Both the position numbers and the translations under genes were made by a program. The notes below the pieces were generated by a model that was not told the origin of the DNA, searched no databases, and saw only the letters and a program-made list of their open reading frames with translations. This document shows, piece after piece, positions 869 through 60,900 of a stretch of 64,000 nucleotides of DNA; position 1 is the stretch's first letter, and each line of letters starts with the position of its first letter. Origin of the DNA: Bugula neritina (lineage: Eukaryota; Animalia; Bryozoa); assembly GCA_964035545.1 (NCBI GenBank), contig OZ037773.1, positions 897,751-961,750 of the forward strand, given 5' to 3'.

Positions 869-2012
869 ATGATTTCAAATGCCGGGTTCCTAGGTGAGCT
901 TGCTCTGACCTAACATTCTCACTCATGGAATCAGGTCTAACATCAGTTAGTTCTAATTTAATCGTCCTGATTGAATCACAACTACTGGAGACTGAGTCTT
1001 ACGTGAAAGACGACGAGAACATAACAATGGCCGACGATCTACTAGATCTCGAGCTTGACACTATGTCTCTCAATCAGTCTACACGCCACGACACAGTCCT
1101 TCGAGTGCCGTCTAAAAAGATGTATGACTCTCAGACTAGGAACAGTTGGTTGTCATCAGAATTATGCTGTAAAGATCACACTCGATCTAACAATAATTCT
1201 GCTCTTTTAGATACCACTCGCTCTTCTCTCTCTCAGGACATGCCGCCATCAGAGATGGCTTGGGATGAGGAATCTACCCCCGTCCTGCTGCCGGAAGTAC
1301 TCCTAACTCAATCATGCTGGATTACCAAGGATACCGAGGCACTCATTCAGGAGAATAAAGGCAATGACCAATGCACCACCTGCCGTCTGTGTCAGCTTCA
1401 TTTCACCACACCTCGCAGACTCCGAGTCCACATCCCCCAACATTATGTCACCACCTTTTGTCCCTGTGGTGAATACAGTTACCACAGGGACTACATCCTC
1501 TGTCATCAGCGGACCATGGGATGCCATGTTGAACATCTCTACGAAGTCGACAAACCCTCTTTTCCTCATTTCCTCGATCTCATCCGGCCAATTATCTCAG
1601 ACCCGACTCGCTATGAACGGCTGCGCCAAGAGTTCCCCGCACCCCGTATCATTACACAAGGACCTTGCCCCAAGCCCCCGGAGTTCAAGACATCCCGAAC
1701 GCCCCGTCCATCACCCCCGCTCACACAGTTCCCTGTCCCAACTCCATACCCAGAGTCGTGCTACAACGCATAAAAGTGCTCCAACGATGGCGTCACTCCC
1801 CTCCCGTTTCCCCACGACCCTCATGTAAACGACGCTGGCCATCTTCATCCCCCAGTCGCCACTCTGCCCCCGCCCGGAACCTGAAGGAAACAGAAGACCG
1901 AATACATGAATTGGAGAGAGAAGTCCAAAGGTTGGCGCCTAGGATATCTGCCACCGCCTCCGAACTCCGGGCTCTCAGCGACTCTGTGGCCCGACTGAAG
2001 AGGAGTGCCTAA
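869..2012 (+). CDS. ORF3 of A: spliced zinc-finger / PxVxL / coiled-coil accessory protein (mini-exon 869-893, intron 894-1210, exon 1211-2012 with one decay frameshift)
   Basis: ATG at 869; CTAG|GTGAG donor; CTAAC..CTCTTTTAG acceptor; CRLC-x12-H-IPQ-H and CPC-x12-H-x5-C; PRVVL at 1749-1763; C-terminal helix LKETEDRIHELEREVQRL. Confidence 0.75.
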
Positions 2013-5900: not shown

Positions 5901-6880
5901 GCAGCTACGAGCTTTAAACAGACAGTATGACTGACACTGTGACTTATTTGGAGGGTAAGTCCATTAAGGAAATTCTGTTATTTAGTTAGAATTTAGCCTA
6001 GTAGCCGAATTCAGTCTCACTTCAGCATAATGATCAAGTTGGTCTCCTGGCGACTTGGAGTTGACTGATCACTGAGATGGTTTATGGATACCAGGAGATT
6101 CTTGACTATCCAACTCAGTCGAAGTGTGGTACTGACAAGATGAAGCCTCCTACAAGAAAGTGTGTGATTTAGTACCGCTTACAGTTGAATCCATGTACTC
6201 TGTTGCAGGTGAGGCTCCGCCTGCATCCCCCGGGTTGCAGGCTTTGCTAGATGCCCGACCCCAAACTGGGAAATGCATTTTTTTCCACCATGAAGCAGGA
6301 GAGCGTGCACGTGCTACAGCATTTCACAGTGACCTTGTGCCCCTGTAGCGTCCACAATTTTTATAGACGCTATCCTCTGTCATCAAAGGAATCAGCAGTG
6401 CCATGTCGGCCACTTAGTGGAGGTAGATCAAGACTCCTATGCGCAATTCCAAGACTTGATTCTCCTCATGTATCCTCCCCATTGAGACGTGAGTCATTGC
6501 TGCAGGGGTTTCACAGTTCCTGGCCAGTGATACCAAGTGACTCAGATGCCACTGGTTCCAACTATGACCCTGTAGTCTATGTGTTTGATGAAGTACAGAC
6601 GTGTTCTCTTTGCGTGATGGTAACCCGTGCTGGTCGGTCAGCAGAAGAGTCTACTCAGCCACTTCCCTCTCAGTCCTCCCATACCCTTGCATTGCTCCGG
6701 AAGAGAAGGGAGAAATCAAAAACTACGACAGTCCCTAATGACACAATAGATGCTGAGATATGTACTAACTTAGAGAAACTACAACGATGCTGCACACAAC
6801 TGTGTAAGGAGCAGTGAAGGACAGCATCGAAACTAGCTAGGTTGCAGAAGCTCTGCAACAGATGGACTGCTAACTGAACA
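2901..6880 (+). mobile_element. Old, internally deleted Gypsy element C (5' LTR ~2901-3242, degenerate PBS, gag with CCHC knuckle, PR/RT/IN fragments, ORF3 remnant; no 3' LTR seen)
   Basis: CWGCGSRRHLLMSC zinc knuckle, FLLDTG protease motif, IPDFTEIAQPLNRLT, KLLPKFVG, HVLQHFTVTLCPC. Many stops and frameshifts. Boundaries approximate. Confidence 0.82.
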
Positions 6881-8344: not shown

Positions 8345-9469
8345 TTAATCCTGGGCTGCTCGTTTCATACGTTTGATAGACTCTTGTAGCGACCGGAGCT
8401 CACTGGATGCGGCATAAATGCGGGGGGCCAGTCTGTAAACCTCTTGTTCCAGCTCATTTGTCCTGGTCTCTACTTCTCGTAGGTTTTGGGCCAGAGGGGA
8501 TGAGCGGGAGAAAGTCTGCTGCTGCCGGTGTCTTTTTTCGTTCTGCGGACGGAAGTGGGAGAGGAAGTGTGTACGTCTTCGTGTCTACCCTCTGTAGTAC
8601 GACACGGGGGAGTGTATGTGGTCGACGTATGGGACTGAGAGGTGGGGAATTAGATGACTTCGTAGGTTTATCTACGGGTTCCGAGATGATGGGTTTAGGG
8701 GAGGGAAAGCCTTGCTCCAGGCGAGATAGCCGAGCTGGGTCGGTGATGAGAGGTCTGATAGCTTCGAGGAATGCTGAGTAAGATGATTTATCCACATCGT
8801 ATACGTGTCCCTGAAAGCAATGCATGGTGCGTTGATGACGCAGTAGATAGTCTCGGTTATAACTATATTCCCCGCAGGGGCAGAACGTTGTGATAAAATG
8901 CTGCGGCAAGTGGACTCCTAATCTACGACGAGTTGTAAACCGCCGTTGGCATTCACGGTTATTGTCATCCCCTCTATATTTCTTAATTTCTGTCTCTGTG
9001 GCAGGGGTAGTCCAGTTGGAGGTTGCTTCTAGCTGGTGTGGCAGCTGTCTGGTTGTGGAAGTTGCTGGGACCGGCTCTGGGTCCCACGCCATCTCTAGAG
9101 AAGGCATGCCCGGGGAGACAGGCGCGAGTGTGTCTACAAAAGTAGAATTATTGTCAGATCGTGGCGGACCTTTACAACATAATTCTAGTGACTGTCGACT
9201 GTTACTAGTCTGAGAGTCACAACTTTTTGAATGCACTCGAGAGACCAGTGAATCATGTGTGGACTGACCAAGAACAGTGTCTAGCTCCAGGTCTAACAGA
9301 CCGTCGGCCATTACAGCGTCCTCGTCGTCATTCACGTGAAACGTGGTCCCTAGTAATTCTGATTCAATCTGATGAATTAGCTCAGAATTTACCGGCATCG
9401 AGCCTGGTTCCATGGATAGGAATACAAGATTTATACTGGCTTACCTGTGAACTCGGTATTAGTGTCCAT
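8345..9469 (-). CDS. ORF3 of B (mini-exon 9469-9445, intron 9444-9134). A 9-nt deletion damages finger 1, and there is a frameshift before the coiled coil
   Basis: ACAG|GTAAG donor; CTGAC..TTTTGTAG acceptor; HLPQH..FCPCGEYSY..H..C; PRVVL at 8595-8609; ELEQEVYRLAPRIYAASSELRSLQESIKRMKR. Confidence 0.78.
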
Positions 9470-14888: not shown

Positions 14889-15194
14889 TGTTGTATTTTT
14901 CAGAATTAGGGTTGATGTGTAAACAAGAGAGTCTATTTATTGCTAGAGACTTCACCAGGATTAGTCGGGTTGATATCGTTGTATTTTAAGCACAAGAATA
15001 CATAATAAAAAGGATATGCAAACTGATAACAAATCACACGTCTATTTAATTTACTGCACTATCCTCAACTGACTAGTAGCGCGAAGCTAACTACTGCTAC
15101 TCACTAGCAGCTTCGCTAATTGGCTGAGTACATTGTTCCGGGTCAATACGCGACCCTGCGTATTGTGCTGTTGGTAGCCCCACGAGCCACCACA
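14889..15194 (-). repeat. 5' LTR of B
   Basis: Direct repeat of 7762-8066. Confidence 0.95.
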
Positions 15195-16523: not shown

Positions 16524-18977
16524 CATATTACATCACTTGTATAACAATAATTAGCTAAACTAAAACCTGGTTTGTTGTTCACTAAATTTAAAATTTAATT
16601 TGCTTCTAGTTTTCTAGATAGAAATTTGGGGAAGCTTGTTGCACAACATTTAGACAGGTATATACTTACCGTATTCATAGACTGACACAGGATCTGCTCC
16701 TGTAGAGTTACAATCAAAGGTAAATTCTTCCCCTTCTATAATAGTTGCTGGTTTATTAAGTGTTATGCCAGTTGGAGCAACTGTAGAATAAAGAAATGCA
16801 CAATATATGTTTTCAAATACAGGTGCATTGATGTATTGTAAATTAGGTTAGGACTGCAGTAAGGGCCTATGCTATATCCTGGGTAAATTGTGTCAATAAA
16901 AAGTGTAAATTTAAATAGCAAAACTGCAACATTCCAAGTCTGCCTATGATAACAGTTATCTGAAACTACATGCCAACCAGATATCCTTATGTGATCCTGA
17001 ACAGAAAATTTCCAACAAAGGTATAATAAACTAAAATTTGTCCTCTACCAAACAAGGATAGGAAATATACTATTTTGATTTAACTAACCACCACCATCAT
17101 GGGAAAAGTTAAAGTTTATCACGTGATCTTTCCATGAGATACTGAACAGAATTTTTCAACAAAGGCCTAATATAACAAATATTATCCACTATCCATAAAA
17201 TGCATATCAATCACATTATTTCAATACCAATAATACCAATCTTGGGAACAGTTAAATTTGTCTATGAGGAAGAAGGAGGAAATAACTTAGAAATTATGAG
17301 AAGTTGTACTAGAAATGGCTAAAGTGGTATATAAAGGCTATCAGTGACCAAAGAAATTAGTTTGAACTTTGAAGTGTTCACCTTTGACTTCCATTGAAAT
17401 TTTTAAGGAGAGAACTTCTCCCACACCACCTCCTTCAAACCCTCTACAGTAGAACTTCCCTTTGCGTGATGAATCAGTTGCAGTGAGTTGTACAGAAAGA
17501 GTGAACCCTTCAGGTTTACCAACTGAGTTACAGTCTGCATGGCTGACTCCAGAACCTTCTATTCCAGAGACAGTAATAATTTCTGGAGTTGATGAACTCC
17601 GCCATACTGTCTCATCCTCAGAACTTGGAATACATCCACTTTGATAGATTGTACTGTCTCCATCAGCTTCATATCGTAACTGTAAAGTTCTCAGATCAGT
17701 ATAACCAGATGCTTCACATGTGAAGGTTATATTCTCATCTTTATAGAAGTCAGGTGAGCTTGTAGTAGTGTAGTTCATCTCTGTAGATGGTTGACCTAAA
17801 CATATGTCATTTTAATAGTTTAGCTCAATACTAATCCAATTGTGGAAATGAAAAGAAGAATTTTGGCCAACTCATTCAGACTTTTATGTGACACTGCCAT
17901 CACAAGAAAGGAACATCTACAAGTTGTGTGAGCATAAAAATCATATCTAAAAGGAATAGAAATGTGGTTACCAACATTCATTTAAAAGTAAGAACCAGAC
18001 TTATCAATCACTGAAAATTTATTCAGAAATATTCACTTACCAATTGTGTAGCTAAATAGTAATAATACTTTAAAAATGGTTATCCAGGGAAGTTTCATAT
18101 TCCTGAAAATAACAAATAACACTAAATAGTATAAATACTGGCCTGCATACTTAAATATATATTAGCTATAAAAACCAGCTAGGAAAAAATACTGGATAAA
18201 GAAATGTTATAAAATTAAAGAAATTCATAAAAGCAAACGCCATCATTATGATGAATGAAGTTAACAGCTGGAAATGTAGAAACTGCCTACAAATGAGAAC
18301 CAGTGAATTAGTGTGTGCAACAGACAGCAGGGTGGCCAGAATCATCTTGAGGTCACAGCAAATCAAAGCAAGCCAAGTCACTGGCTAACTAAGTTAAGTT
18401 TAGAGAATTGAAAACAATGACTGGAAAGAAAATAAATTGAATAGATTTCAAAGTTGGATAAGTTAGTTTTAATTTAAACTATTTTGAAATTTATGTCTAT
18501 CTACATAAATAGATTTACTGAAAACAATGATGAAGTTAAATTTAATATGTCATGCAATGCATTTCTCTACATGAATATTCTAAAGAGGAAAAGTTTTATT
18601 ACAAGTAATTCAGACCTGCAAGCCTAATAAAGTGATATTGTGGTGGCTCGTAGAGCTACCAGCAACACAATACGCAAGGTTGCGTATTGACCCGGAACGA
18701 TGTATTAGCCAATTAGCTAAGCTGCTTATGAATAATAGTAGCAGCTTCGCGCTACTAGCCCAGTTGAGGATAGTGCTGTAAATTAAATAGACGTGTGTAT
18801 TATTAACTGTTGTATATTAGATTTTATTATGTATTCTTGTATTCAAATATAACGATATCTACTCGACTTATCACGGTGAAGTTTCTCTAGTAACAAATAG
18901 ACTCTCTTGGTTGCACATCGACCCTAATTCTGAAAATCATAACAGTGGTGGCAGCAGTGGGATAGTGTACATCAAAG

Positions 18978-19844
18978 ATGGAGACTGAAAATGCTAGAAT
19001 GCAACCACCCCCAGTAGAAGGTGAGCGTAGAAATGATGTTAATCCTGTGAATTGTGAGGGAGAAGAAGCTTATAGATATTGCTTGAAAGCTCCCACCTTT
19101 ACTGGGTCAGAAGATGTCGAACAGTTTATACAAGAATTCAGAGAGGTAATGGAGATTGCTCAATGGCCGCATAGAGTGGCCCCTATCCAATTGCGGAGAG
19201 CGTTGACGGAGCAAGCCAAGCCGTACGGAGTGGGAACGGACGTAAACGGAATACTGACTGCGCTGCGGGCCCGTTTTGGCATCTCCGCAATAGACGCTAG
19301 AACCAAGCTACAGAGATTGTGCCGCACCCCGCGGACCTCGCTGCAAGAACATGCCGCGACGGTGAAGAAGCTGGCACAGATTGCGTATGGTGACCTACCA
19401 GCGCAACACCAAAAGCGTTACACATACAACGCCTTTGTCCAGTCACTAAACGACCTGGGCCTACACCATCAACTTCGAGCTAAAGGGATAACCAGAATAG
19501 AGGATGCCCTGAAGGCTGGAGAAGCTTACCTGTTGGCTACCCAAATGCATCGAGCACAACGGAACCCACCAGTAGTTGGAGTCAGTGCTGCCAGGGCCAC
19601 GACAGGCCCCGAAGCCCCCCCGCTGGAAGCCGAAGTGGACCGTATGGTAGAGATGCTGGGACAGCTGGTAACAATTCTGGCCGGCGCTGGCCCCGGTCAG
19701 GCCCTGCGGTTGCCCCCAACACCTGTGGGGCAGGGCTGGAGTAGTGCTGGTCAGGACCATGGACAGAAAGGACGACCCAAATACCAGGGGGCGTTAAACT
19801 GTCACGGCCCGCGGAGGCTCTCCCTCCCCGCGGGCCACAACTGA
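18978..19844 (+). CDS. gag: gag of D
   Basis: 288-aa ORF after the PBS; no CCHC knuckle. Confidence 0.9.
   Translation: METENARMQPPPVEGERRNDVNPVNCEGEEAYRYCLKAPTFTGSEDVEQFIQEFREVMEIAQWPHRVAPIQLRRALTEQAKPYGVGTDVNGILTALRARFGISAIDARTKLQRLCRTPRTSLQEHAATVKKLAQIAYGDLPAQHQKRYTYNAFVQSLNDLGLHHQLRAKGITRIEDALKAGEAYLLATQMHRAQRNPPVVGVSAARATTGPEAPPLEAEVDRMVEMLGQLVTILAGAGPGQALRLPPTPVGQGWSSAGQDHGQKGRPKYQGALNCHGPRRLSLPAGHN
19793..19836 (+). promoter_or_regulatory. Putative -1 ribosomal frameshift signal (G_TTA_AAC + 6-nt spacer + GC stem-loop)
   Basis: Stem GGCCCGCGG/CCGCGGGCC; the -1 frame is open from 19799 into the pol leader. The same arrangement is in B (~13996-14040, minus). Confidence 0.7.
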
Positions 19845-22800
19845 AGGAGTCTGGTGGGACACGCCGTCGTCTGTCCATACGGACACGACGGAACACTCCC
19901 CCCGAGTGGCAGGTACCACGCAGGACTAGCAGGCCCGCACAACGGCCAAGTACCTTCTCCCTGCCACTCGCCAACCAATTCCACCGGTTACCTCGGGAGG
20001 AGGAGCCCGCCACTGAAATGGAGCCGGAAGGCCCAGTGGAGAGCCCCGAACCCTGCCGGCACCGACCTCGCCGCCGGAAACCCCGTAAACCACGGGTGAA
20101 ACCCTCGCCGTCCTACCAATCTAGGACAGCACATGCGGGGGGGGGTGAAAGTACAACCACATGGAGAGCTATTTCCTACCCGGAAAGGTGGCCGGCAACG
20201 CCGTCACTTTCCTGCTCGACTCCGGTTGTACTACCAACCTTCTCAGTCGTAGAGTCTTTGAGGCACTGCCCCGCCCGGACAGGGATAGAGTACGACCGTA
20301 TACGGGGGAACATGGCACCCTGGCAGACGGGTCGTGTATTCCCTTCTACGGTATTATCAAGCTTCCTGGGCGTGTCCAAGACCAGGCTGTACAGGAGACT
20401 TTTATCATAAGCCAACTGGAGGAAGATGCTATCCTCGGAATGTCCTTCTTGAAGCAATACCAGTGCCGAATAGACTTCAGCAAGTCGGTGGTGCTGATGG
20501 GCGGGCGAGAACTCGCCTGTGTGGATAAGTTAGGGCGTCCTCTGGTGGGCGGTGTTCAGGTAGTTCGAAACTGCACCGTGCCCGGATGCTCCAGAGCTAC
20601 TATCCACTGCCGAGTGAACAGCAACCGGATAGCCAGGCTCGGTGTCGTTGAGGGCGCGCACGAAAGGATCCAACTCGCTAGTAGTTTAAACCGACTAACT
20701 GAGCGAGGGGAGGTCTTAGTGCAGTGTGTCAACCCCTTTACCGAGCCCATTGAGCTCCCAGCTGGGTCAATGCTGGGCCGGTTCCACTCCGTCCAGGAAG
20801 AGGACGTGGGCCCGTCGCTGGGTGACGCGACGGAGACACCCCCTCGACACCCTACTCAGGGACGAGGGGCAGTCCCAACACATCTCCGGGAGTTATATGA
20901 AACAGCCTGTGGCGGCTGCGCGAGCAACAAGGAACGCCAAGCGATGGCGAAGTTGCTAAGCGACTACGGTGATGTGTTCAGCAGCGGAGATCATGACGTG
21001 GGGCTGACTGGAGTTGTCAGACACGAAATACCGCTGACTGCAGGGACAGTCCCTGTCCGGCAACCCACACGCAGGCTGGGGCCAGAAAAAGAGAAGGAGG
21101 TTAGCCGACAAGTACGGGATCTTCTGGACCGCGGCCTCATAGAGCCCGCCCATAGTGCGTGGAGCTCGCCGGTCGTACTGGTCCGGAAGAAAGACGGCAG
21201 TTGGCGGTTCTGTGTGGATTACCGCAAACTCAATAACGTAACCATACAGGACGCCTACCCTCTACCTCGTATTGACGAGTCATTGGACGCCCTAGCCGGC
21301 AGCAAGTACTTCAGTACGTTAGACTTGCGGAGTGGCTATTGGCAAGTCCCTCTGAGCCCCGACGCCCAAGAGAAAGCGGCGTTTATCACACGGGACGGGT
21401 TGTGGAAGCAGAAGGTGCTGCCCTTCGAGTTAACCTCCGCCCCAGCCACCTTCCAGAGGCTGATGGAGCAAGTCCTTAGCGGGCACCATTGGAAGACACT
21501 GCTGGTCTACCTCGATGATGTCATCGTGATCTCCCCAGACTTCGAGACGCATGTCAGTCGTCTGCAGGAAGTTTTCGAGAGACTCCGAGGTGCCGGTCTT
21601 AAGCTCAAACTTTCCAAGTGCGCTCTATTGCAGCCGGAGGTCAAGTACCTGGGGCACGTTGTCGGTCGAAACGGCGTGGCAACGGATCCCGAAAAGGTAC
21701 GGGCGATAGAAGACTGGGTCACCCCCCAAGACTTGAGCGGACTCCGGGCTTTCTTGGGGCTGGTAGGGTATTACAGGCAATACATACCGGACTTTGCGGG
21801 CATAGCACAACCGTTAAACCGGCTCACCGCAAAGGGAGTGACGTGGCAGTGGACCCCAGTCGAACAAGGAGCATTCGACCGCCTCAAGGGCTGCCTGCTA
21901 ACGGCGCCCATCTTGGCCTACCCAGACCCCGCTCTGGAGTACATCCTCGACACGGACGCCAGTGACCAAAACGTTGGCGCTGTGCTGTCTCAAGTGCAGA
22001 AAGGCCGAGAGGTAATAGTAGCCTACTACAGCAAGTCTCTCTCACCCGCTGAACGAAATTACTGCACTACCCACAAGGAGCTGCTGGCAGTAATCAAGTC
22101 AGTGAAGCACTTCAGACCATACTTATACGGCAGGAAGTTCCGGCTGCGTACGGATCATGCCTCGCTGATCTGGTTGTGCAAGAGAGCAGAGCCCTCCAGT
22201 CAGGTCGCCCGGTGGCTCGAAATCCTAGCTGAATTTTCCTACCGGATCGAACATCGACCGGGCAGGAGACACAGCAATGCGGATGGTTTGAGCCGCCGAC
22301 CTGATGGAGGTTGCAAACAGTGTCTCAACATCGAGAGGAGGGACGGAGGTCCCCCGCGATGTGAGTTGGAGACGCTGGCTTGCCATGGAGCACCGTATGA
22401 CTGGGACCAGGGTCAACTCAGACAGGAGGTTGACTAGTCCCCGGAGGTTGTACAAAACCTCCGCGCCAACCCTGTACTGGCCGATAATGTCCGAGAGCTG
22501 AAGAAGCTCCAAGAAGAGCTGCCTGGAGTAGTGGCAGACATATATCGGGCCAAAAAGGAAGGGCGACGACCCAGCGAGGAACGCATAAGACAGGGATGCG
22601 CCGAGTTCCGGCTATACTGTCAGCGTTGGGACTCGCTGCGGATCGGGCAGGATGGTCTACTGACCATTTCTCTAGCTGCCAGCGGCAGACACCCGGAAAG
22701 GAAGAGGGTGGTCTGTCCCACTGCCATTCGCTGTGAGCTGATTTGGGACACTCACAAACAGGCCCACGCAGGGGTCAAGAGAGTGATCTCCAAATTACGG

Positions 22801-24415
22801 CTCCGGTGGTATTGGCCACAAATGGAGCGTGACGTCCGACTCAGAGTCAAACAGTGTGAGATCTGCCAGGCCAGTAAGCATAGCCGTCCCCCTGGTGAAG
22901 CGGGACGGCGGAGGCTATATGCTGGAAGGCCCTGGCAAGTAGTTGCTGTAGACCTGGTCGGACCCATGCCCCTGACCCCCAGAGGCAATAGTTGGATCTT
23001 AGTGCTGACCGACCACTTTACTAGGTGGGCGGATGCTCTGGCTATCCCAGATGCGTCAGCCCCAACAGTGGCCAGGGCATTAGACCAACATGTATTCTGT
23101 TATTTTGGTCTCCCCGAACAGATACACTCTGATCAAGGCGCTCAGTTCCAGTCTCAACTGATGAGCCACCTTTGCCACCTCTGGGGAGTAAATCAGAGCC
23201 GGACCACCCCCTACCACCCTCAAGGTAACGGGGTGGTGCAGCGCAACAACCGGATGCTAGGTGATGCGCTCCGGAGTCTCCTCCTTGGACGCGGCCAAGA
23301 GGAATGGGATACGGTGTTGCCGCAAGTCATGCGTCCATACCGTAGCACCCCACACACCAGTACTGGTGAAACCCCAAACCTCTTGATGCTCGGGAGAGAC
23401 TCGTGTCCCTGACCATCTTACCTACCACGTTCCAGAGCAAGACAACTCGGTTCACGAGTATGCCAGTGAACTAGTGGAACGGATGAAGGCCGCACACGAT
23501 ATACTGCGCGAACAGCAGTGGAAGGTGCGGCACGAAGATTCCGAGGAACCACCTCTCTACCAAACGGGAGATAAGGTGTGGATGGTCAATCACCGTAGGC
23601 GTCGCGGGCAGGCTGACAAATTAAAGCCTAAGTTTGTGGGACCCTACGTAATCGTCGAGGCTATGCCCAACCATACGTACAAGATTGAGCGCTCAGGACA
23701 GGTGTCTATCCAGAATGAGTCTCGCTTGAAGCCGTATTGGGCTAGCCCCGACGCAGTGGAAGAAGCCCCCCCGTTGTTGGAGCCCAGGAGGCAGACAACA
23801 ACACGCGGGCGACGGCGGCATGGACCTGAATACGAAGTGGTCATACCGCGGGAGGAAAACTTGGTGAGAGAGGAGCGACAGCTTCTGTCAACAGAAGCGT
23901 GTCCGCCACCGCCAAGTCTAATTCCATCACTTCCAGAAACCGAGCCGGTTCCGAAAGTGCAAACCCCCACGGAGGGAGGGGCTCCATCCGGAGAACATGA
24001 AGAGGTGACCACTAACGGTGAAGTAGAGAGGCCATTAGAGGCCCCTACTAATAAACCGGAGAGCGTGTCACCCCCCCTAGAACGGAGACAGCGTACGAGG
24101 AAACCCCCACCATATTTAAAAGACTTCGTATGTGACTGCATTAAAAGCGGCACGCATGAAAGTCTAGGGGAAAACCGTACGATAAAATGTTGGAGTTGTG
24201 AAACCCACGCAAATATCAACTTTTGCGAGGGCGGAATAGTGGGAGGAATTAATGCGCGTAAAGCAAATAGTTCCGACCTCGTGCCTCAGAAACGATGCTC
24301 AGCCCTTTCTTACGCTGACATCGCCAAAGGCAGACATATCTCACAACCAGCTCCAATCTTACCAAGAACGTTGAGTATGGACATTAATACCGAGTTCACA
24401 GGTAAGCCAGTATGA
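19799..24415 (+). pseudogene. pol: pol of D (PR-RT-RH-IN) with about 3 lesions: G-run indel ~20140, TAG at 22435, frameshift ~23395
   Basis: LLDSG, VYLDD, LDTDAS, H-x3-H..C-x2-C, DDE integrase core, GPY motif. Confidence 0.95.
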
Positions 24416-25252
24416 GTCTTGTATCCTTATCCATGGAAACGGGCTCGATGCCAGTAAATTCTGAACTATTTCACCAGATTGAATCAGAATTACTGGGAAC
24501 CACGTTTCACGTGAATGACGATGAAAACACTGTAATGGCCGACGGTCTGTTAGACCTGGAGCTAGACACTGTTCTTGGCCAGTCCACACATGATTCACTG
24601 GTTCCTCGAGCGCATTCTAAAAGTTGTGACTCTCAGGCTAGTAACAGTCGACAGTCACTAGAATTATGTTGTAAAGATCCACCGCGATCTAACAATAATT
24701 CTACTTTTGTAGACACACTCACGCCCGTCTCTCCGGGCATGCCTTCTCTAGAGATGGCGTGGGACCCAGAGCCGGCCCCACCCACTTCCACAACCAGACA
24801 ACTACCACCCCAGTTGGAAGCAACCTCTAACTGGACTACCCCTGCCACAGAGAGAGAGATTAAGACTCATAGAGGAGATGACAGTAACCGCGAATGCCGC
24901 CTATGTCAGCAGCGGTTTACAACCCATCGTAGACTGAGAGTCCACTTGCCACAGCATTACATCACAACGTTCTGCCCCTGCGGAGAATATAGTTACAATC
25001 GTGATTATCTACTGCGTCACCAACGCACTATGCAGTGCTTTCAAGGACACGTCTATGAAGTAGACAAATCATCATATCCCGCATTCCGTAACGCCATCAG
25101 ACCCCTCATCACCGACTCGGCTCGGCTGTCTCGCCTGGAGCAAGGCTTTCCCTCCCCTCGACCCATCATCCCTGAAACCATGGATAAGCCTACAAAATCA
25201 GCTAACTTCCCACCTCTCAGTCCTATACGCCAACCGCATGCACTCCCCCGTC
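24377..25252 (+). CDS. ORF3 of D (mini-exon 24377-24401, intron 24402-24712), both zinc fingers intact, C-terminus lost
   Basis: CRLCQQRFTTHRRLRVHLPQH and FCPCGEYSYNRDYLLRHQRTMQC; splice signals as in A, B and E. Confidence 0.8.
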
Positions 25253-27605
25253 ATTGTCCTACCAGCAGACAGTTCATATCAATAAGGTGAATAGATGAAT
25301 AGACACATTGCCGTTTGGTATTGCAACAGCTTGACTTTACTGCTTATAATTTGGATTACATAATCCTCAATGACTAAGATCATAAATACTTTCAATTCAT
25401 AACTCTGCTGTCTAGAAACCAGAGTTTGACGACCTGCAGTAATATAGTTATATTGGTGAGTGTGGTGTATGTGTGGCTTGAATGAAAATGAAAAGTATAA
25501 ACGGGAGTGTGTATGAGAGAACGAGAGGAAAGAGAGAGGAGAGATAGAGTGAATGAAGAGATTGAAGATTGTGCAGAATGCATTAAGCTATATGAGCGAG
25601 TGCTAGCCCACTTGAGACTTGACAATACCCCTACAAACAAATACCTCTACAGACTGATGGGAGCTAGAGTCACCTCGCAGCCAAGCCAAGCGACCTGTGC
25701 CTGTATGCTGGACTCGAGCTCACCTGAAGGCTACAACCCAATTATATTATTCGGTGAGATGCAATAGCTGAAAACTCCATATCCCGATATAACATGATGA
25801 TCCGATTTAAGGTTTGACTGCATTAAAATTCCCAAGTATGTTGTTGAGTCTCCTTAATTTATCTTTACTTTACCTAGCTTGTACAGGGGTTTGTAATTTC
25901 GATAGGAATACAAAATTGAATATGAATAACTATACCTAACTATAACTATAACTATAAGTCAATAACTATTAGCACTACTACTGGAATTGTGATTGTATTT
26001 ATAATAATTATCACCATCACAATCAATATTATTACCACAATGAACATCTTAATCAAAAATATAACATCATTACTACAGTTTTAGTTTATTATTATCTCAG
26101 TTGGGGTAGCACTTCCGCAGCAACTGAAATGCCTATAGAGAGGGAAGCCTCTTGTGACAACTTATATTAATATTACACCAGAGTTAGCACTTGTAGTTGT
26201 ACTTGTTACATTTACAGCAATTGCTGTTTGATCAGTAATCATAATGAGTAATTGCAATCAGTTATTCATATGTCATATATGATATAATGATTCATTACTA
26301 TTCAAATGGTGATCATAATATTAATCATAATGACAATCATAATGGATAATAAATATAAACTTCAATATGATAATGATTGAAATTTAAATGTGAAATTCAA
26401 AAAGAAAATGAAAATCAAATAATATCATTATTAAATTTAAATCAAAATGTCATTTGTCCTTGAAATTGAATTTGACGAAAAATATTTAAACTCATATTCA
26501 AATTTAAAGTAGTAATAAATTTGTATACGTTTACGTATTTTATGACAGCTTCCACGCACTACTTTACTAGTGCAACACACCAATCGACAACTAAACATAG
26601 TCACTAACTGTAAAGTGAGCACTTAACATAATTAATTAAAGTAGTAAAAATAGCATAGTGTAATGAATACCTGATAGTTGATCGAGAATTCAGTGTTGCG
26701 TTTAGTATAACGTTTCATTTAAATAAGATTGATTCCCGCCTACGCAACGACTGCTAGTTGTATTAATTAGATAGCAGCACGCCCTCGCCCATTGGCTGTG
26801 GTTTTACGCTTTGGTAGCCCGGATGTTCGTTGCAGACTGAACCTACAGCTAGTAGAATAGTAGCGCTCTAGCAATGCAAGTTTCATCGCATCAATAACAA
26901 TCAAATTTAACATGATATAATTATTAAAATGTAAATCAATTTGAATTGTGCATCAACAGCACACGCGAATCTGCTTCTTCTAGCTCACTGTCACACGGTG
27001 CAACTGCTGTAACCAATCACATTACTCTCAGACTGTGTCAGAGCCAGTCTTATTGCACTTACCATTACATCAACAAACAAATTTCTGGATACAAATACAT
27101 AATAGAGCATCAACCAATTAAATTAAGAGCTACAACTAGAAAGAGCTGAAAAGTTGACTTTAAAAATATCAGCACCACTGTCAGATCAGAGAATATACAA
27201 TATTTTATATTTTTGCAGAGTAGATACTGCACAGTAACTTGATGTATTTGCACCTTACAGAATGATATGCTAATAGTAATGGTGATTATGATTGGAACTA
27301 ATGGTTTGAATATATATATGTATAGCTTGAAAGTTTGTAGTAAAGTAGTGGAGAAGAAATTCAAACTTCATCATGGCCTTGCAAAATAATTCACTAGGTC
27401 ATACTCCATCATGGCCTTGTAAAAATATTTACCAGGTAGATACAACTGGTTTTTTCTAGCTAGAAAATGATTATTTTATTGATGAAAATAGAAGTGTTGA
27501 AACAGTTACATCCTCATGAAGACAGACATCAAGACTGAAACTATTTGCTAATGTAAACAATAGAAATGCCAAATAGTCTCATTACTATGAAGCTTGCAAA
27601 GATTG

Positions 27606-27974
27606 TGGTTGCGTTCCAGCATTTTCAGTCTCCATCTTGGATGCACTATCCCACTGCTGCCACCACTGTTATGTTTTCCAGAATTAGGGTTGATATGCAA
27701 TCCAGAGAGTCTAATTACTTGCTATAGAACTGCACCAGGATAAGTCGAGTGAACGAGTATATATTTTAAACACAATAATACATTACAAAAACGATACAAA
27801 TACATTTGACAATTCTAAACATCTAGGCTATTCAGCACTCTAACTTCGACTAACTAACAGCGGGAAAACTAATACTGCTGCTAACTATCAAAACCGCTAA
27901 TTGGCTATCACTTGTTCCGGGTCAATTACGCGACCCTGTATACTGTGCTGCTGGTAGCTCCACGAGCCACCACA
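27606..27974 (-). mobile_element. 5' fragment of a B/D-family Gypsy element: LTR 27667-27974, PBS, and the first ~10 gag codons
   Basis: LTR homologous to B/D, PBS tggtggcagcagtgggat, METENAGTQP. Confidence 0.88.
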
Positions 27975-28576
27975 CCTAACCGAATTCTGCTACAATTTCT
28001 GCTGCCAGTTTTCGTTAGCCAGTTTTCATCAGTTATTGCCGGTATCCTTAAATTTTAAACCACCGCCAAGAAGATCCAGCATGAAAGGAGATGCCAAATC
28101 TTTGAAAATCTTTGTTGATATTATGAAGAAGATAAAAGCAAATGAAGATAATGAAGACAGTTGCAGCACAGAAAATACAGCAGTAGTAGCAGCAGTAACA
28201 ATAATATTAATGTTAGAAGGAATATCTAGAAAATTGACTAGTTGACACACATATCAGTAATATAGACTGGTTGCAGTGAGTAACTTTACAATTTTATGTT
28301 GAGGATATATTGACCTCTTTTTATTATTATTCTATTTGAACTAATAATGATGATGATGAACTCTTTATTTGATAAATTAATAATACAAGAAAAAATAAAA
28401 TACTTCTATTTGCAGGCAAAGATGAAAGTTAATATTTTCGAATGTATAAAAATACAATCTACAGTATATTTGCTTTCTGTATAACAGTTTTTTAAATATT
28501 ATAAGGTACATATAATATTATTAAATACAGTGTGATACTTGAAAATATAAATTGTATACGAGTATTATATTGAGTA

Positions 28577-36884: not shown

Positions 36885-36914
36885 TCCATCTGCATCCAAG
36901 CTTGAACGTTGAGT

Positions 36915-38048
36915 ATGAGTATAAATACCGAGTTCTCGGGTAAGCTTGCTTAGATCTAACACTCCACTAATGGAAATAGATCTCACCTCAGTCAACTCTG
37001 ATTTAATCGATCTGATTGAATCACAGTTACTGGAGACAGAGTCACACGTGAATGACGACGAGAACATAGTAATGGCGGACGATCTACTAGATCTGGAGCT
37101 TGATACTATGTCTCTCAGTCAGTTTACACGTTCTGACACAGTCTCTCGAGTGCCGTATAAAAAGATGCATGACTCTCAGACTAGTAACAGTCGATTGTCA
37201 TCAGAATTATGCTGTAAAGATCAAACTCGATCTGACAATAATTCTGCTCTTTTAGACGCCACTCGCTCTCCTGACTACGGAGATATGCCACCATTAGAAC
37301 TGGCCTGGAACAGTGAGACACCTCCTACATCCCTACCAGACGTGCTACTCAAACAACATAGCTGGGTCGCACCAGAGACAGAGAAACTGATTCAACTACA
37401 CTGCGGCCATGACGGATACACCACCTGCAGGCTGTGTCAGCAGCACTTCTCCACCCATCGCCGTTTGCGCGTCCACGTACCGCAACACTTCCTAACTACT
37501 CTCTGTCCCTGTGGTGAGTATAGTTACCACAGGGACTACATCCTCAGACATCAGCGCACTATGGACTGCCATGTGGGACACTTGTACGATGTAGACAAAT
37601 ACAACTTCCCCACCTTTCTCAATCTGATCAAACCTTTCATTAAGGATCTCCCCCGCTTCGAACGACTCAAACACGGATTCCCCTCACTTCGCATCATCAC
37701 TCATGGACCGTGTCCAAGACCCCCCCAGACATAAGAAACCTACCAAGCCACCTCACTCTCCTCCCGCACAGACTATACCTCGTCCCTCCGCCCTGCCTCG
37801 AGTCCTATTTCACAGAGTCGAGATACCCCTCCCCCACTTCTATGCAGCCCTCTTCTAAACGCCGATGGAAATCCTCCTCCCCAAAACGGCAGGTCCCTAC
37901 AGCTCGCAATATAAAAGAAGTCGAGCTCCGTATGTATGATTTAGAAGCGGAGATTCAACGGCTAACCCCCAGAGTCGCCGCAGCCGCCTCCGAGATGAAG
38001 ACCTTTAAAGCTTCCGTGGCCCTCCTCAAACGGGGCAACCACGACTGA
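36915..38048 (+). CDS. ORF3 of E (mini-exon 36915-36939, intron 36940-37255), decay frameshifts in C-rich tracts
   Basis: TCGG|GTAAG donor, CTGAC..CTCTTTTAG acceptor, two zinc fingers, PRVLFHRV, SKRRWKSSSPKR, coiled coil IKEVELRMYDLEAEIQRL. Confidence 0.78.
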
Positions 38049-38893
38049 TGGTAGCAGTATCTTCCCTCTTCACTCCTCTGACTATCCACACCTGCAGGTG
38101 GTGACAATCTCTCCCTCTCCGTTCCTCCCCTCCTCTGACTGTCTTTAGTCGGTGTTGCACGATCTCCGTACATGTGATTGTATTATTCTGTTTATTATTA
38201 TTATATTTTTCTTATGCCAATATAAATTGGCTCAATAGTGTGTAAACTCTTTTGGAAATATCTACCTTACGTGATGTTCAAATCTTTTTTTTTTTGGTTT
38301 TTTTTTATGTAATAAGTTGCTTATTATTTTTTTTGGGGTGCATATCAGGAAGGTATGCTTCCTGCTGGGGGGGCAGTGTAATGGGGCGTGGCTTACGCCT
38401 CACGCTCATCCCCCTGCCAATCAGAGAGTGATTGGCAACTATTGGATGAAGCTAAGCAGAACAATTGATTAGTTAGTTAGCGTATACTTGCCGTGATGTA
38501 AAGTAGCCTTGTGATAATACTTATATAGATTTTTACGCCATATTTTATAGTTTATAATAAAGTCTTACACACGAAACCATCAGTGAATTGCTTGTGACTA
38601 AATGCAGATTGCTCACTAGAAGCCCACATAAACATTGTGCTTCGCACAACAATATATATATAAAATAACGGACATAATTAAACTCACAAACAGAAAGAAG
38701 AGAAATGTTGTGTACACAAAAGCATATATATAATAAGGTAGACAGAGTGGTCGAACACACAGTTGGTCAACTGCAGAGAGAGAGGGTGCTATACAGCACA
38801 CAGACCAATGGCCGGGGGAACTCGTCATTTACGCGACGACAATGTAGTCCACCGAGAAGGTGCCTTTAACAGGCATGCTTATTGGGTAGGCTC

Positions 38894-39642
38894 TCACTCC
38901 TGTAGTGAGCGCGATCTGTGCCGAGCTTGTCGGGCACGTAGCCTCCGCTTCAATCGCCCCACCGAGTTTTTCAGTTGGTATAGGCCTGTCGTTGTATCGA
39001 GCAGGTCCGGAGCTAGTTGTGTAAACTTGGCTTGTAGTCGCAGAAGCCGCTCTTCTACTGTAACCAATTGGCTGGGTCCTGGCGGGGTGGAGCAGTCTCT
39101 TGGGCGGGGGGGTGTTGTTACTTCTCCTGGTTCAGGGGCGCTACTAGGATTAGCAGGGGTAGTTATCGGGGCCTTTACCATGGGGGACTTCTGACGGGCA
39201 GACAGCAGTAGTATTTGGAACCTGAAGTTAGCGCAGCCAGGGTTAGAGCCTTCTTGACAACCGGCTTGATGACATCCCAATACTGGGGGAAACTGTCCTC
39301 GTCTACGACGTAGCCTTCTCCTGCGAAGCAGCTCATCTTATGTACTATAACTGGGTACGGGTACACGTCATGGAACCCGCACGGGCAAAAGTGCAGCAGG
39401 AAGTGTGCGTCTACATGTAGACGCAGTGAGCGGTGTGATGGGCATTCCTTGAGGCAGACCTCACAGGTCTGGCGGGGTCAACTGGGTCTCCAAGCTTCTT
39501 CTATCCTCCGTTCCGTCGCTGGCGACACCCATCTCTGTCGTCGGTGGAGCACCACGAGCAGGCCATGTTCCATTTCTGGTTCTTCCTCCATAGGCAGAGG
39601 GGTTGGCTGGTCCCGTGACCGAGGTGGTCACTCGAGTGTTAT
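38894..39642 (-). pseudogene. Divergent ORF3 exon 2 of F
   Basis: After a TTTCAG acceptor: WVSPATERRI..CEVCLKECPSHRSLRLHVDAHFLLHFCPCGFHDVYPYPVIVHKMSC..VDEDSF, then coiled coil VEERLLRLQAKFTQLAP..LKNSVGRLKRR. Confidence 0.78.
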
Positions 39643-39862
39643 CTGAAAGAGCTAACAGTGTTAAGGATTATACACTGAAGTACCGCCGGCATGTACAGCC
39701 TGACAGGTGCTATGTTCAGTTAAACACTCGCGAGATTCAGGCTAATGAATAGTTGATCGAGAACACACTCGCTATGGCAGATTATTAGAATCTAAGTCGA
39801 CGTGTGTTCCCACCACTGTGTTTCATTATCGAATCTTTAGCTTGCTAACTGGTATAGTTAGA

Positions 39863-42670: not shown

Positions 42671-42839
42671 AATGTTGATGTTAAACTGTAATTCTCTTGT
42701 GAGTTTAATCTAGATAATTTGTCTATCTTGTTTGTCAGACTTATTAATTTATGCTCGCTAGTATAATGTAAACAGAGCAAGATTTCAAAAGATCGCTAGG
42801 ATAATCTTTATTTTGGTTTGGGTAATTTCTTGTAATATT

Positions 42840-54700: not shown

Positions 54701-57045
54701 CAGTCTAAAGATCAAGCCCTCTAAGTGTGCATTGTTGCAGCAAGAAGTTAAGTACCTAGACCATGTAGTTGGCCAGGACAAAGTCACGACAGACCCTGAG
54801 AAGGTCTGAGCTGTGAGAAACTAGGTTGTCCCATTGGACCTCACTGAATTTCAAGCATTCTTGGAGTTGATAGGGTACCACAGGCAGTATATACTCGACT
54901 TTACAGAAATTGCTCAGCCGTTGAATCGGCTGACAGTGGACGTATGCAGAGCAGCGAGCATTAGAGCATCTCAAGAATTGCTGGATGGCGACACCTATCT
55001 TGGCGTACCCTGATTCAGCAAAAGAGTACATTTTGGACACTGATGTGGGAGCTGTGCTATTTCAGGCCCAGAATGGTCCAAGGTGGTGGTGGCTTACTAG
55101 AAAAAAACTATGTCGGCCCATGAAAAGAGCTACTGCACCACCAGGAAAGAGGTTCTGGCAGTAGTTAAGGCGGTTAAGCATTTTAGACCGTATCTGTATG
55201 AGCGGATGTTCAGGCTTCGAACGGATCATGCATTCTTGATATGGTTGTGCAGACGAGCTGAACTTTATAGTCAAGTTGCGCATTTGCTTGAGATCCTGGC
55301 TGAGTTTTCTTACCGAATCCAGCACGGATCCGGAAAAAAACACGGTAATGTTGATGGATTGAACCGGCGGCGTAGAGAGAACTGTAAGCAATGCTTAAAC
55401 ATTGAGCCCAGGGATGGTGGAGCTTCTCGCTCGAACACGAAAGAGCAAATAGGGACAGCAGGTGTATACAGCTGAGAAAAAGGCCAACTCCGGTCAGAGG
55501 CCTCCTCCTACTCTTTTGTGTGAGCAGCAATGGCGATTGAGGAGTGCTCCTCCCTTGCATAAGGAATGGGACTGGGTCTGGATAATCAGTCACTACCAGC
55601 GGTGCGGACAGGCAGCTAAGTTACGGCCAAAGTTCGTGGGTCGTAATTGTGTGACTGAGGTCATGCTCAAGTACACGTATAAAGCAGATCGATTGGGTCA
55701 AGTGTCGATCCAATACGAGGCTCGCCTGTAGCCATTTTGAGTAAGCCCTGATGCATCAGGGCAGAATCCTACACTCCTGAAGCCTACGTGCCGTCTGACA
55801 GTGAGGGGATGGGCTAGGCCACACAGGATATTAAAGGTTTTAGTGCAGAATCCGGAAGAGGCGGCCAAAGAGCCGGCAGTAATTGAACGTTGTATTCCCC
55901 AGTGGTGTATGCACTAAATTAGTTGGGGTGCTCAGGAGGGGCGGAGCCAACTCACAGGCTGAAGGAGCTGTTATGTAATCACTATTGCTGTGTAGGGTTA
56001 CCCTTTTCAATTGTAACTATTGAAGTGACAGCACGTCTTCGTGACCATTGGCAGCTACGAGCCTTAAACAGACAGTATGACTGACACTGTGACCCATTTG
56101 GAGAGCAAGTTCATTAGGGAAGTTCTGTTATTTAATTAAAATTTAGCCTAGTAGCCAAATTCAGTCTTACTTTATCATAATGATCAAGTTGGTCTCCTGG
56201 CTAGATGCCCTTCTCCGCAAGGGGAGGATATATCTGATGCTGGTTTGGAGATGCTGTCCGACCTGCATTTTGGTAACCAGTCGACTGAACCACCACACAG
56301 ATGCTAATGCGATGCAAGTGACCACCAGTGATGCCTTGCCTTTGCCAGAGGCTCTACTCAAAAAGGCAAACTGGACTACCAGGCGGACGAAGATGTTGGT
56401 CCAGGTGATCATTGGAACGTAGACTAATAAGAAATGGGAAATGCACTTTTATTCCACCATGAAGCGGGTGAGCCTGCACGTGCCACAGCATTTCACAGTG
56501 AGCTTTTGCCCCAGTAGCGTCCACAATTTTTATAGACGCTATCTTCTGTCATCAAAGGAATCAGCAGTGCCATATCGGCCACTTAGTCGAGGTAGATCAA
56601 GACTTCTATGCGCAATTCTGAAACTTGATTCTCCCCATGTATCCTCCCCATTGAGACGTGAGTCATTGCTGCAGGGGTTTCCCAGTACCTGGCCGGTGAT
56701 ACCAAGCGACTCAGATGCCACTGGTTCCAACTATGACCCTGTAGTCTATGTGTTTGATGAAGTACAGACGTGTTCTCTTTGCGTGATGGTAACCCGTGCT
56801 GGTCGGTCAGCAGAAGAGTCTACTCAGCCACTTCCCTCTCAGTCCTCCCGTACCCTTGCATTGCTCCGGAAGAGAAGGGAGAAATCAAAAACTACGACAG
56901 TCCCTAATGACACAATAGATGCTGAGATATGTACTAACTTAGAAAAACTACAACGATGCTGCACACAACTGTGTAAGGAGCAGTGAAGGACAGCATCGAA
57001 ACTAGCTAGGTTGCAGAAGCTCTGCAACAGATGGACTGCTAACTG
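51730..57045 (+). mobile_element. Element C' (counterpart of C, retaining more PR/RT/RH sequence)
   Basis: LTR ~51730-52081, [46 protein letters not shown]. Confidence 0.85.
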
Positions 57046-57930: not shown

Positions 57931-60900
57931 TGTTGTATTTTTCAGAATTAGGGTTGATGTGTAACCAAGAGAGTCTATTTGTTGCTAGAGACTTCACCAG
58001 GATTAGTCGGGTTGATATCGTTGTATTTTAACACAAGAATACATAATAAAAAGGATATAAAAACTGGTAACAAATCACACGTCTATTTAATTTACTGCAC
58101 TATCCTCAACTGACTAGTAGCGCGAAGCTAACTACTGCTACTCACTAGCAGCTTCGCTAATTGGCTGAGTACATTGTTCCGGGTCAATACGCGACCCTGC
58201 GTATTGTGCTGTTGGTAGCTCCACGAGCCACCACACCGCCCCCACCAGCAGAAAGCCCTCTTTCTGATATAAAAATAATTTACAAGTAACTACGTACATC
58301 AGTGGACTAAACGGGAGCAAACATATAAAATGTATATACAAGATCCAAATTAGTTAGATACATATATATAGATATAAAAAGAATACACAATAAACTAACA
58401 TTAAGTAATTAGTAAGTCTTATTTACATATAGAGTACGTGCCACAGTCACGGCAGGGAAGGCCACAGTGAGGTAGTAGAGGAGTGAGGTGGAAGGCTGGG
58501 GAAGGAGCTCATATTAATCCTGGGCTGCTCGTTTCATACGTTTGATAGACTCTTGTAGCGACCGGAGCTAACTGGATGCGGCATAAATGCAGGGGGCCAG
58601 TCTGTAAACCTCTTGTTCCAGCTCATTTGTCCTGGTCTCTACTTCTCGTAGGTTTTGGGCCAGAGGGGATGAGCGGGAGAAAGTCTGCTGCTGCTGGTGT
58701 CTTTTTTCGTTCTGCGGACGGAAGTGGGAGAGGAAGTGTGTACGTCTTCGTGTCTACCCTCTGTAGTACGACACGGGGGAGTGTATGTGGTCGACGTATG
58801 GGACTGAGAGGTGGGGAATTAGATGACTTCGTAGGTTTATCTACGGGTTCCGAGATGATGGGTTTAGGGGAGGGAAAGCCTTGCTCCAGGCGAGATAGCC
58901 GAGCTGGGTCGGTGATGAGAGGTCTGATAGCTTTGAGGAATGCTGAGTAAGATGATTTATCCACATCGTATACGTGTCCCTGAAAGCAATGCATGGTGCG
59001 TTGATGACGCAGTAGATAGTCTCGGTTATAACTATATTCCCCGCAGGGGCAGAACGTTGTGATAAAATGCTGCGGCAAGTGGACTCCTAATCTACGACGA
59101 GTTGTAAACCGCTGTTGACATAGCTGGCATTCGCGGTTATTGTCATCCCCTCTATATCTCTTAATTTCTGTCTTTGTGGCAGGGGTAGTCCAGTTGAAGG
59201 TTGCTTCTAGCTGGTGTGGCAGCTGTCTGGTTGTGGAAGTTGCTGAGACCGGCTCTGGGTCCCACGCCATCTCTAGAGAAGGCATGCCCGGAGAGACGGG
59301 CGCGAGTGTGTCTACAAAAGTAGAATTATTGTCAGATCGCGGCGGACCTTTACAACATAATTCCAGTGACTGTCGACTGTTACTAGTCTGAGAGTCACAA
59401 CTTTTAGAATGCACTCGAGAGACCAGTGAATCATGTGTGGACTGACCAAGAACAGTGTCTAGCTCCAGGTTTAACAGACCGTCGGCCATTATAGCGTCCT
59501 CGTCGTCATTCACGTGAAACGTGGTCCCCAGTAATTCTAATTCAAGCTGATGAATTAGCTCAGAATTTACTGGCATGGAGCCTGTTTCCATGGATAGGAA
59601 TACAAGATTTATACTGGCTTACCTGTGAACTCGGTATTAGTGTCCATACTCAATGTTCTTGGTAAGGTTGGAGCTAATTGTAAAGTACATCTGCCCTTGG
59701 CGATGTCAGCGTAAGAAAAGGCTGGGCATCGTTTCTGAGGCACGAGGTCGGAATTATTTGCTTTATGCGCATTAATTCCTCCCACTACTCCGCCCTCGCA
59801 AAAGTTGATATTTGCGTGGGGTTCACAACTCCAACATTTCTCCGTACGGTTTTCCCTTAGACTTCCATGTGTGCCGCTTCTAATGCAGTCACATACGAAG
59901 TCTTTTAAATATGGTGGGGGTCTCCTCGTACGCTGTCCCCGTTCTAGGGGGGTGACACGCTCGCCGGTTCATTAGCAGGGGCCTCTAATGGCAATTCTAC
60001 TTCACCGTTAGCGGTCACTTCTTCCTGTTCTCCGGATGGAGCCCCTCCCTCCGTGGGGGTTTGCACTTCCGGAACCGGCTCGGTTTCTGGAAGTGATGGA
60101 ATCAGACTTGGCGGCGGCGGACGCGCCTCTGTTGGCAAAAGCTGTCGCTTTTCTCTCACCAAGTCTTCTTCCCGCGGTATGACCACTTCATATTCACGTC
60201 CATGCCGCCGTCACCCACGCGTTGTTGTCTGGCTTCTAGGCTCTAACAACGGGGGGGGGCTTCTCCCACTGCGTCGGGGCTAGCCCAATACGGTTTCAAG
60301 CGAGACTCATTCTGAATAGACACCTGTCCTGAGCGTTCAATCTTGTACGTATGATTGGGCATAGCCTCGACGATCACGTAGGGTCCCACGAACTTAGGCT
60401 GTAACTTAGCTGCCTGTCCGCGACGTCTACGGTAATTGACCATCCACACCTAATCCCCCGTCTGATAGAGGGGTGGTTCCTCGGAATCTTCGTGTCGCAC
60501 CTTCCACTGCTGTTCGCGCAGTATTTCGTGTGCGGCCTTCATCCGTTCCACTAGTTCACTGGCATACTCATGAACCGAGTTGTCTTGCTCTGGAACGTGG
60601 TAGGTGAGATGGTCGGGGACACGAGTCTCTTTCCCGAGCATCAAGAGGTTTGGGGTTTCACCAGTACTGGTGTGTGGGGTGCTACGGTATGCACGCATGA
60701 CCTGCGGCAACACCGTGTATCATTCCTCTTTTCCGCGTCCAAGGAGGAGGTTCCGGAGCGCATCACCTAGCATCCGGTTGTTGCGCTCTACCACCCCGTT
60801 ACCTTGAGGGTGGTAGGGTGTGGTCCGGCTCTGATTTACTCCCAAGAGGCAGCAAAGGTTGCTCATCAGTTGAGACTGGAATTGAGCGCCTTGATCAGAG

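Follow-up and report, generated by a model that had tools for sequence, protein, structure and literature searches.

A third open reading frame with a predicted double zinc-finger domain in Ty3/gypsy elements of Bugula neritina

Ty3/gypsy elements and ORF3 copies in the window

The window, which is the whole 64-kb stretch of DNA analysed, is a nested cluster of related LTR elements together with one LINE. The general structure is complete in elements C and E: each has two TG...CA LTRs, a primer-binding site (PBS), a PPT and a 4-bp TSD (C LTRs at 14889-15194 and 7762-8066, TSD CCAC; E LTRs at 31264-31538 and 38377-38651, TSD ATAT). Pfam placed the pol domains in the order PR-RT-RH-IN, in contrast to the IN-before-RT order of Gmr1, which is not present in the window elements, and the best PDB matches to pol included the Ty3-G RT/RH (E 5e-98). 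By their LTR, PBS, PPT and TSD structure as well as by their pol order, these elements are Ty3/gypsy LTR retrotransposons. Element D, whose pol is disrupted by one stop and one frameshift, was mapped as follows:

18639..18944 (+): 5' LTR of D, TG...CA, with CCAAT at LTR position 71
18946..18963 (+): primer-binding site of D, similar in C, E and F
18978..19844 (+): gag of D
20149..24415 (+): pol of D, PR-RT-RH-IN, with an SH3/GPY-F-type C-terminal domain and a Pro-rich tail

The primer-binding site of D is presumably of the tRNA-Leu type. The 3' LTR of A lies at about 2356-2641. A duplicated block (6264-13800 vs 56432-64000, 97.5% identical) holds the 3' end of B, the flank and C, and also covers the 3' end of B'; C and C' share one common insertion site. 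The loss of PR-RT-RH and the IN core from F, reported in the initial annotation, was confirmed, and most of its gag is missing too.

Several further observations were made in the window. E (TSD ATAT) seems to have inserted into the 3' part of F (30845-42393), between the F ORF3 and an F-type PPT and 3' LTR (30845-31192); the two LTRs of F share 94% identity and have no matching TSD. The IN core is absent from B (2891-6850) and B' (51720-57030), and B also lacks most of RT. An isolated 5' LTR, PBS and gag start of a C/D-related subfamily lies at 27605-27976 (-). The LINE (46839-50156, +), which carries an endonuclease and RT, is broken and ends in a weak C2H2 finger. A 789-nt inverted repeat, 93% complementary and with TA arrays, occupies 44100-45831, and an imperfect 240-nt palindrome occupies 15764-16006. 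The open frames 17341-17811 (-) and 42785-43321 (-) had no Pfam match; the former may be a host exon and the latter resembles a Penelope-type fragment. A tRNA-Asn call by ARAGORN at 63910-64000 overlaps the C' coding sequence at the window edge and is probably spurious.

A homologous ORF (ORF3) lies 3' of pol in all eight copies (A, B, B', C, C', D, E and F), as first claimed; tblastn recovered each of them and a profile of the core domain found 8/8. The copies and the parts of the D copy are:

925..2012 (+): A ORF3, frameshifted, coiled coil at 1875-2012
6236..6850 (+): B ORF3 remnant
56345..57030 (+): B' ORF3 remnant
8345..9413 (-): C ORF3, first Cys pair deleted, frameshift ahead of the coiled coil
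58514..59591 (-): C' ORF3, broken duplicate of C
36970..38050 (+): E ORF3, broken
38830..39642 (-): F ORF3, short lineage, broken
24802..25167 (+): conserved core domain of D, with W-x4-T helix, finger 1, finger 2, VD strand and two helices
24895-24957 (+): finger 1 of D
24973-25038 (+): finger 2 of D
25168..25251 (+): start of the Pro-rich linker in D, truncated here by unrelated sequence

Both finger motifs of the initial annotation are present in D (C-x2-C-x12-H-x3-H and C-P-C-x12-H-x5-C) and in F (C-x2-C-x12-H-x3-H and C-P-C-x12-H-x3-C), so F does keep all eight Zn ligands; the motifs do not hold for C, which has the first Cys pair deleted, or for B and B', which have lost finger 1 ligands. 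Stops or frameshifts interrupt every window copy, and none has fingers and coiled coil in one frame: the two parts lie in different frames in A, C, C', E and F, and B and B' are remnants (which resemble P0165). The claimed layout of linker, basic patch and coiled coil is therefore broken throughout the window, and stands for the intact relatives described below. Two of the earlier placements need revision. The D ORF3 is truncated at 25251 by unrelated DNA, ahead of the basic patch, so the interval 24377..25252 holds neither basic patch nor coiled coil, and the ATG at 24377, given as the start, lies in the pol frame, the shared start of the long ORF being 24433. C and C' share an insertion site in the duplicated block, and the 3' ends of B and B' fall in it as well, so the number of independent insertions is smaller than eight. 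The argument from the retention of ORF3 in F was weak, because the F copy is itself broken and its persistence is no evidence of selection.

Selection, family and core structure

Purifying selection was visible between subfamilies. Pairwise Nei-Gojobori estimates on natural open stretches gave an ORF3 dN/dS of 0.16-0.28 in nine between-subfamily pairs among A, C, C', D and E (upper 95% limits ≤0.42), far from the value near 1 that the initial annotation had named as telling against it. Between C and its duplicate C' the ratio was 0.32, and all five comparisons involving F were saturated. ORF3 is thus similar to gag (0.13-0.27); among the other controls, RT/RH and IN had 0.06-0.19 and the pol tail 0.35-0.41.

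Nor does the product resemble an envelope. Peak 19-residue hydropathy was 0.51-1.49 in 23 intact proteins and <1.6 in 74/77 representatives, so the earlier claim that ORF3 is not env, having no TM segment, holds by hydropathy in both sets. The same hydropathy scan revealed neither a signal peptide nor a C-terminal TM anchor, and no viral fusion protein was matched at E 0.001 in Pfam, PDB or BFVD.

Searches beyond the window revealed a large family. With D as the query, 569 candidates yielded 87 matches, of which 11 are complete proteins of 355-383 aa in which fingers, Pro-rich linker, basic patch and coiled coil all stand in one frame. With F, there were 56 matches among 110 candidates, many of about 245 aa and with the same parts without the long N-terminus. 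Intact natural relatives thus span 245-383 aa overall. A profile built from 36 proteins retrieved 315 representatives of 50%-identity clusters at E 0.001 from a set of 1.84 billion, and 141 of these passed 1e-10; these figures include fragments, and the best 150 of the 315 were listed. On the contigs of runs X1-X3 the family is multi-copy, and locus searches of metagenome contigs and viral contigs confirmed no relative. Taken together, the dN/dS ratios, the intact natural ORFs and the lack of an env, Pfam or PDB family match argue strongly that ORF3 is, as first proposed, a selected non-env accessory gene.

NCBI-named members (30 proteins looked up) fell in four clusters, from Watersipora and Bugula. 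The bryozoan members Watersipora XP_067940964.1 and XP_067944745.1 and Bugula KAF6040922.1 and KAF6040923.1 are uncharacterised; where scored, the core in bryozoan proteins had a domain E of 1e-25 to 1e-31, and some of these proteins carry two cores. Among P0146, P0175, P0334 and P0274, three have two tandem cores (two being bryozoan gene models) and in one the ORF joins a gag-type protease to the core. The presence of a pol-tail motif in the core ORF of P0275 and of a gag-type protease in that of P0274 ties the wider family to elements. The family tree is weakly resolved and does not separate the bryozoan proteins as a source from the bryozoan proteins as domesticates.

The shared core consists of W-x4-T, C-x2-C-x12-H-x3-H, a five-residue linker, C-x-C-G-x11-H, an eighth C or H, and VD. 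The full eight-ligand pattern was present in 82/94 family proteins, the eighth ligand being C in 60 and H in 22, at a spacing of 2-12. Canonical C2H2 fingers are joined by a TGEKP-type linker; the ORF3 linker is five residues long and not of the TGEKP type in all 82 matched proteins, and forms a strand in the core model. By motif and model, finger 1 fits the beta-beta-alpha C2H2 type and finger 2 is a CxC variant, with Pfam scores under the cut-off. Finger 2 has D at helix position 2 in 60/95 alignment rows and R/K at position 6 in 50/95; in finger 1, position 6 is occupied by a hydrophobic residue.

AlphaFold and Foldseek, which had been proposed as a check, gave a confident model of a compact core of ~120 aa (pLDDT 95.5, pTM 0.86) and nothing at E 0.001 with the ORF3 models. 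Solved structures are resembled by model residues 28-78 only, and weakly, the matches being tandem C2H2 pairs of DNA-binding factors (Z 3.3-3.6); Z reached 3.6 at most in a VIA comparison of the core, which is no proof of a new fold. VIA on the full-length model returned matches to long helices only, and was set aside. No Pfam or PDB family matched the core, and among the 36 alignment members no Pfam family stood out, at most 6 matching any one family and all of them weakly. WIZ, the sole result of a third homolog search (39 hits), was rejected as a sum of generic C2H2 matches with each domain <12 bits, and the clusters returned by the ESM Atlas were hypothetical or generic C2H2 ones, with low counts of shared features. 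At the C-terminus, a crude heptad score passed 5/31 sequences vs 1/620 shuffles; with so few passing, the coiled coil rests mainly on the predicted helix of 57 residues and on the alignment.

Predicted splicing and protein layout

We predict that ORF3 is expressed through splicing. Neither this splice architecture nor the acidic N-terminal segment nor the breadth of the family featured in the initial annotation, and CERV, a functional precedent discussed below, was also absent from it. The predicted features in D are:

19021..19026 (+): gag-leader splice donor in phase 1, located 43 nt downstream of the gag ATG
24377..24401 (+): coding mini-exon of 25 nt, running from its ATG up to the second donor; A, C, C', D and E agree in this length
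24402..24712 (+): intron, 311 nt, phase 1, bounded by a GT donor and an AG acceptor, with a CTAAC branch point at 24689 and a pyrimidine tract
24433..24712 (+): acidic N-terminal segment present in the long form, which retains the intron; the segment resembles an activation domain and evolves under purifying selection

The gag-leader donors of C (14812), E (31622) and F (41967) likewise fall in phase 1 of gag, and for ORF3 the acceptors of A, C, D, E and F share this phase. Over the ~820 nt that span the pol/ORF3 junction, A, C, C', D and E have a single G-GTRAG donor apiece, and its aligned position is constant in an otherwise variable spacer; in all five it is in phase 1, and an ATG of its own precedes it by exactly 25 nt. 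The same five copies have, inside ORF3, a branch point followed by a pyrimidine tract and an AG, and F has donor and acceptor signals too (acceptor at 39643, second donor after 40667); B and B' have no such acceptor. By approximate splice-site matrices, strong sense donors across the whole element number two each in D and C (gag leader and after pol) and six in E. Synonymous divergence supports the acceptor, pS being 0.08-0.30 at the branch/acceptor block vs 0.37-0.80 downstream. The predicted intron (311-317 nt) is still coding, with a dN/dS of 0.17-0.33 and gaps 3 nt long, and 41/87 long-lineage proteins begin with ME, matching the shared start codon. Splice signals around an intron that is nevertheless selected as coding sequence predict two or three isoforms, with and without the acidic segment; the spliced form would lose most of that segment. 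An AT-rich insertion of ~700 nt (39830-40500) lies within the predicted intron of F.

A mini-exon with its own ATG is suggestive of an internal promoter, although no promoter was identified upstream of it. The pol-tail block at 24190-24340, with its equivalents in A, C, E and F, shows strong nucleotide conservation, including a 20-nt identical run in D vs F, and is a candidate internal promoter or RNA element; in its consensus RNA structure the covariation term was unfavourable (+2.56).

Protein layout was counted in the 77 representatives whose core is nearly complete. Of their N-terminal parts, 38 reach 60 aa or more and 34 of these are net negative, the Arg-rich core is net positive in 69/77, and C-terminal parts are basic in 34/43, with a basic cluster in 22/43. 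An activation-domain rule (PMC10550315, eq. 1) was passed by 9/38 N-terminal vs 0/43 C-terminal parts and by 7/11 intact long-lineage proteins; the same source gives a precision of 0.2-0.7 for its revised predictor. Under a relaxed version of the rule, 17/38 N-terminal and 2/43 C-terminal parts passed, and 0/12 proteins of the short (F) lineage. An acidic region, a basic double finger, a linker and a coiled coil make up what is, on sequence, the layout of a transcription factor. We infer from the basic core, the basic patch and the tandem C2H2-like folds of the model that the protein is probably a nuclear, nucleic-acid-binding one.

A candidate target lies in U3:

18672..18685 (+): ACGC-N6-GCGT inverted repeat in U3 of D, candidate dimer-binding site or RNA hairpin

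The pattern ACGC-N5/6-GCGT, noticed by eye first and thus post hoc, has six matches in 64 kb, all near the U3 start of A, C, C', D or E LTRs and with differing spacers. It stands upstream of the CCAAT box that is present in all four LTR types, and ACGC was the most enriched of 134 four-mers in these types (19 vs 7.3 expected). F-type LTRs have no such palindrome, and it may be shared by descent only. Words shared between LTR and internal sequence exceeded shuffles in only one of five elements (A, p 0.02).

Possible functions and comparison with known systems

The transcription-factor layout and the U3 palindrome together favour an LTR transactivator, and our tentative preference is that the ORF3 product activates its own element, binding the LTR as a predicted dimer. 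LTR transcripts would splice from the gag-leader donor to the acceptor in ORF3 and yield a short form, and a transcript retaining the 311-nt intron, perhaps started in the pol tail, would yield a long form with the acidic segment. The protein would enter the nucleus by its basic patch and dimerise through the coiled coil, and its two-finger core would bind the ACGC-N5/6-GCGT site. The long form might then recruit coactivators and set up positive feedback like that of foamy virus Tas, the short form being a weaker activator or a brake. The points against this are substantial: the spliced form and the F lineage are without most of the acidic segment, the finger linker is non-canonical, the palindrome is missing from F LTRs, and the same palindrome also folds as an RNA hairpin. 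A more inclusive reading, in which a widespread invertebrate radiation of Ty3/gypsy elements combines the regulation of a complex retrovirus with the lack of env, through its own dimeric zinc-finger factor with activator and short splice forms acting on a U3 palindrome, and in which hosts have domesticated the domain, is possible and, as a whole, doubtful.

The closest functional precedent is CERV of Cer1, a Ty3/gypsy element of C. elegans, which is encoded in the same position, spliced to gag exons, nuclear and needed for RNA export; it has a Cys finger, a leucine zipper and an NLS (PMC10309623). By analogy with it, a spliced ORF3 product may bind structured genomic RNA and enable the nuclear export of intron-containing RNA, in the manner of Rev, or control splicing. 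Because CERV is a spliced nuclear Cys-finger product that exports genomic RNA from the same slot, we treat this as a serious alternative, if an unlikely one. The strong splice sites in the genomic RNA, the Arg-rich core and the U3 hairpins of D and E (z -3.3 and -3.7) are consistent with it. However, hairpin z-scores are weak in 3/5 LTRs, the NES-like pattern found in 6/11 long-lineage proteins lies within the part that splicing would remove, and the family-wide acidic N-termini fit activation better. In its published description, CERV also measures 517 aa, contains a C4 loop besides its H, M and GTPase-like G domains, and is reported to lack homologs beyond nematodes (PMC10309623). Compared by that description only, ORF3 differs in having its two C2H2-like fingers within a ~120-aa domain, in its acidic N-terminus and in the coiled coil at its C-terminus; it shows no apparent homology to the H, M or G domains, and neither ORF3 model contains a Rossmann-type domain.

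Returning to DNA binding, the same predicted nuclear layout would serve a chromatin or anti-silencing factor that binds element DNA and blocks host repression and is not a classical activator. The ACGC motifs enriched in the LTRs contain CpG, and the top weak fold matches include the methyl-DNA-binding fingers of Kaiso and ZBTB38, tied with other fingers; the fold matches are generic, however, and the protein has no enzyme or chromatin-reader domain, which leaves this reading improbable. We consider it very improbable that ORF3 targets integration, through splicing at the second donor that would fuse the finger domain to the integrase tail, comparable to the chromodomain of chromoviruses. In C and D the pol frame does cross the second donor in phase with the acceptor, P0172 and P0275 hold a pol-tail motif and the core in one ORF, and related elements are densely nested in the window; against this, pol of A and E ends before the mini-exon, the second donor of F is out of phase with pol, and the gag-leader donor is in phase in 4/4 elements tested. 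Annotated bryozoan genes share the domain (XP_067940964.1 is 42% identical to D over 111 residues), but a captured host gene carried as a passenger is largely refuted by the dN/dS, with selection across synonymously saturated subfamilies, and by splice sites fitted to gag, and an env remnant is opposed by the lack of a TM segment or fusion-protein match, so that either origin is most unlikely.

Ty3/gypsy elements are usually viewed as gag-pol units with or without env that need host factors to be transcribed. No description of this ORF came up in literature searches, although Repbase, Dfam, GyDB, paywalled papers and supplements could still contain one. The word 'zinc' occurs 0 times, and no zinc-finger ORF is described, in the main texts of three mollusc and annelid LTR surveys (PMC6238403, PMC8556966 and PMC8220671), and the one supplement file searched gave no match. 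Non-env third ORFs are already known, as in the Ty3/gypsy-like elements Juno, Vesta and TelKA of bdelloid rotifers, where they encode GDSL esterase, DEDDy exonuclease, and TM or coiled-coil types, unlike the zinc-finger ORF3 ('zinc' and 'C2H2' have 0 occurrences in the main text of PMC5408684). What is apparently undescribed is the zinc-finger domain of ORF3, and our study defines it as a new, confidently modelled domain occurring in hundreds of divergent proteins.

Splicing has parallels in env-bearing elements. The start codon of the Drosophila gypsy env is supplied by gag via splicing (PMC8096092), the Oikopleura Tor3a env is spliced from a donor near the gag start, and some Tor elements use an internal promoter (PMC4402516). 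These third ORFs are reached through a gag-start donor, as predicted for ORF3, whereas their products are membrane glycoproteins and that of ORF3 has neither signal peptide nor TM segment. For LTR feedback, the parallel is foamy virus Tas, a 3' accessory regulator for which such feedback is proposed, as it is here for ORF3; foamy virus, however, is a retrovirus with env and a proven internal promoter (PMC10534306), and no family match was found for ORF3. Exact predicted splice junctions and a candidate binding site are now available for testing. If the transactivator reading is true, a self-encoded, alternatively spliced regulator occupies the env slot, and feedback in the style of complex retroviruses has evolved in env-less elements too.
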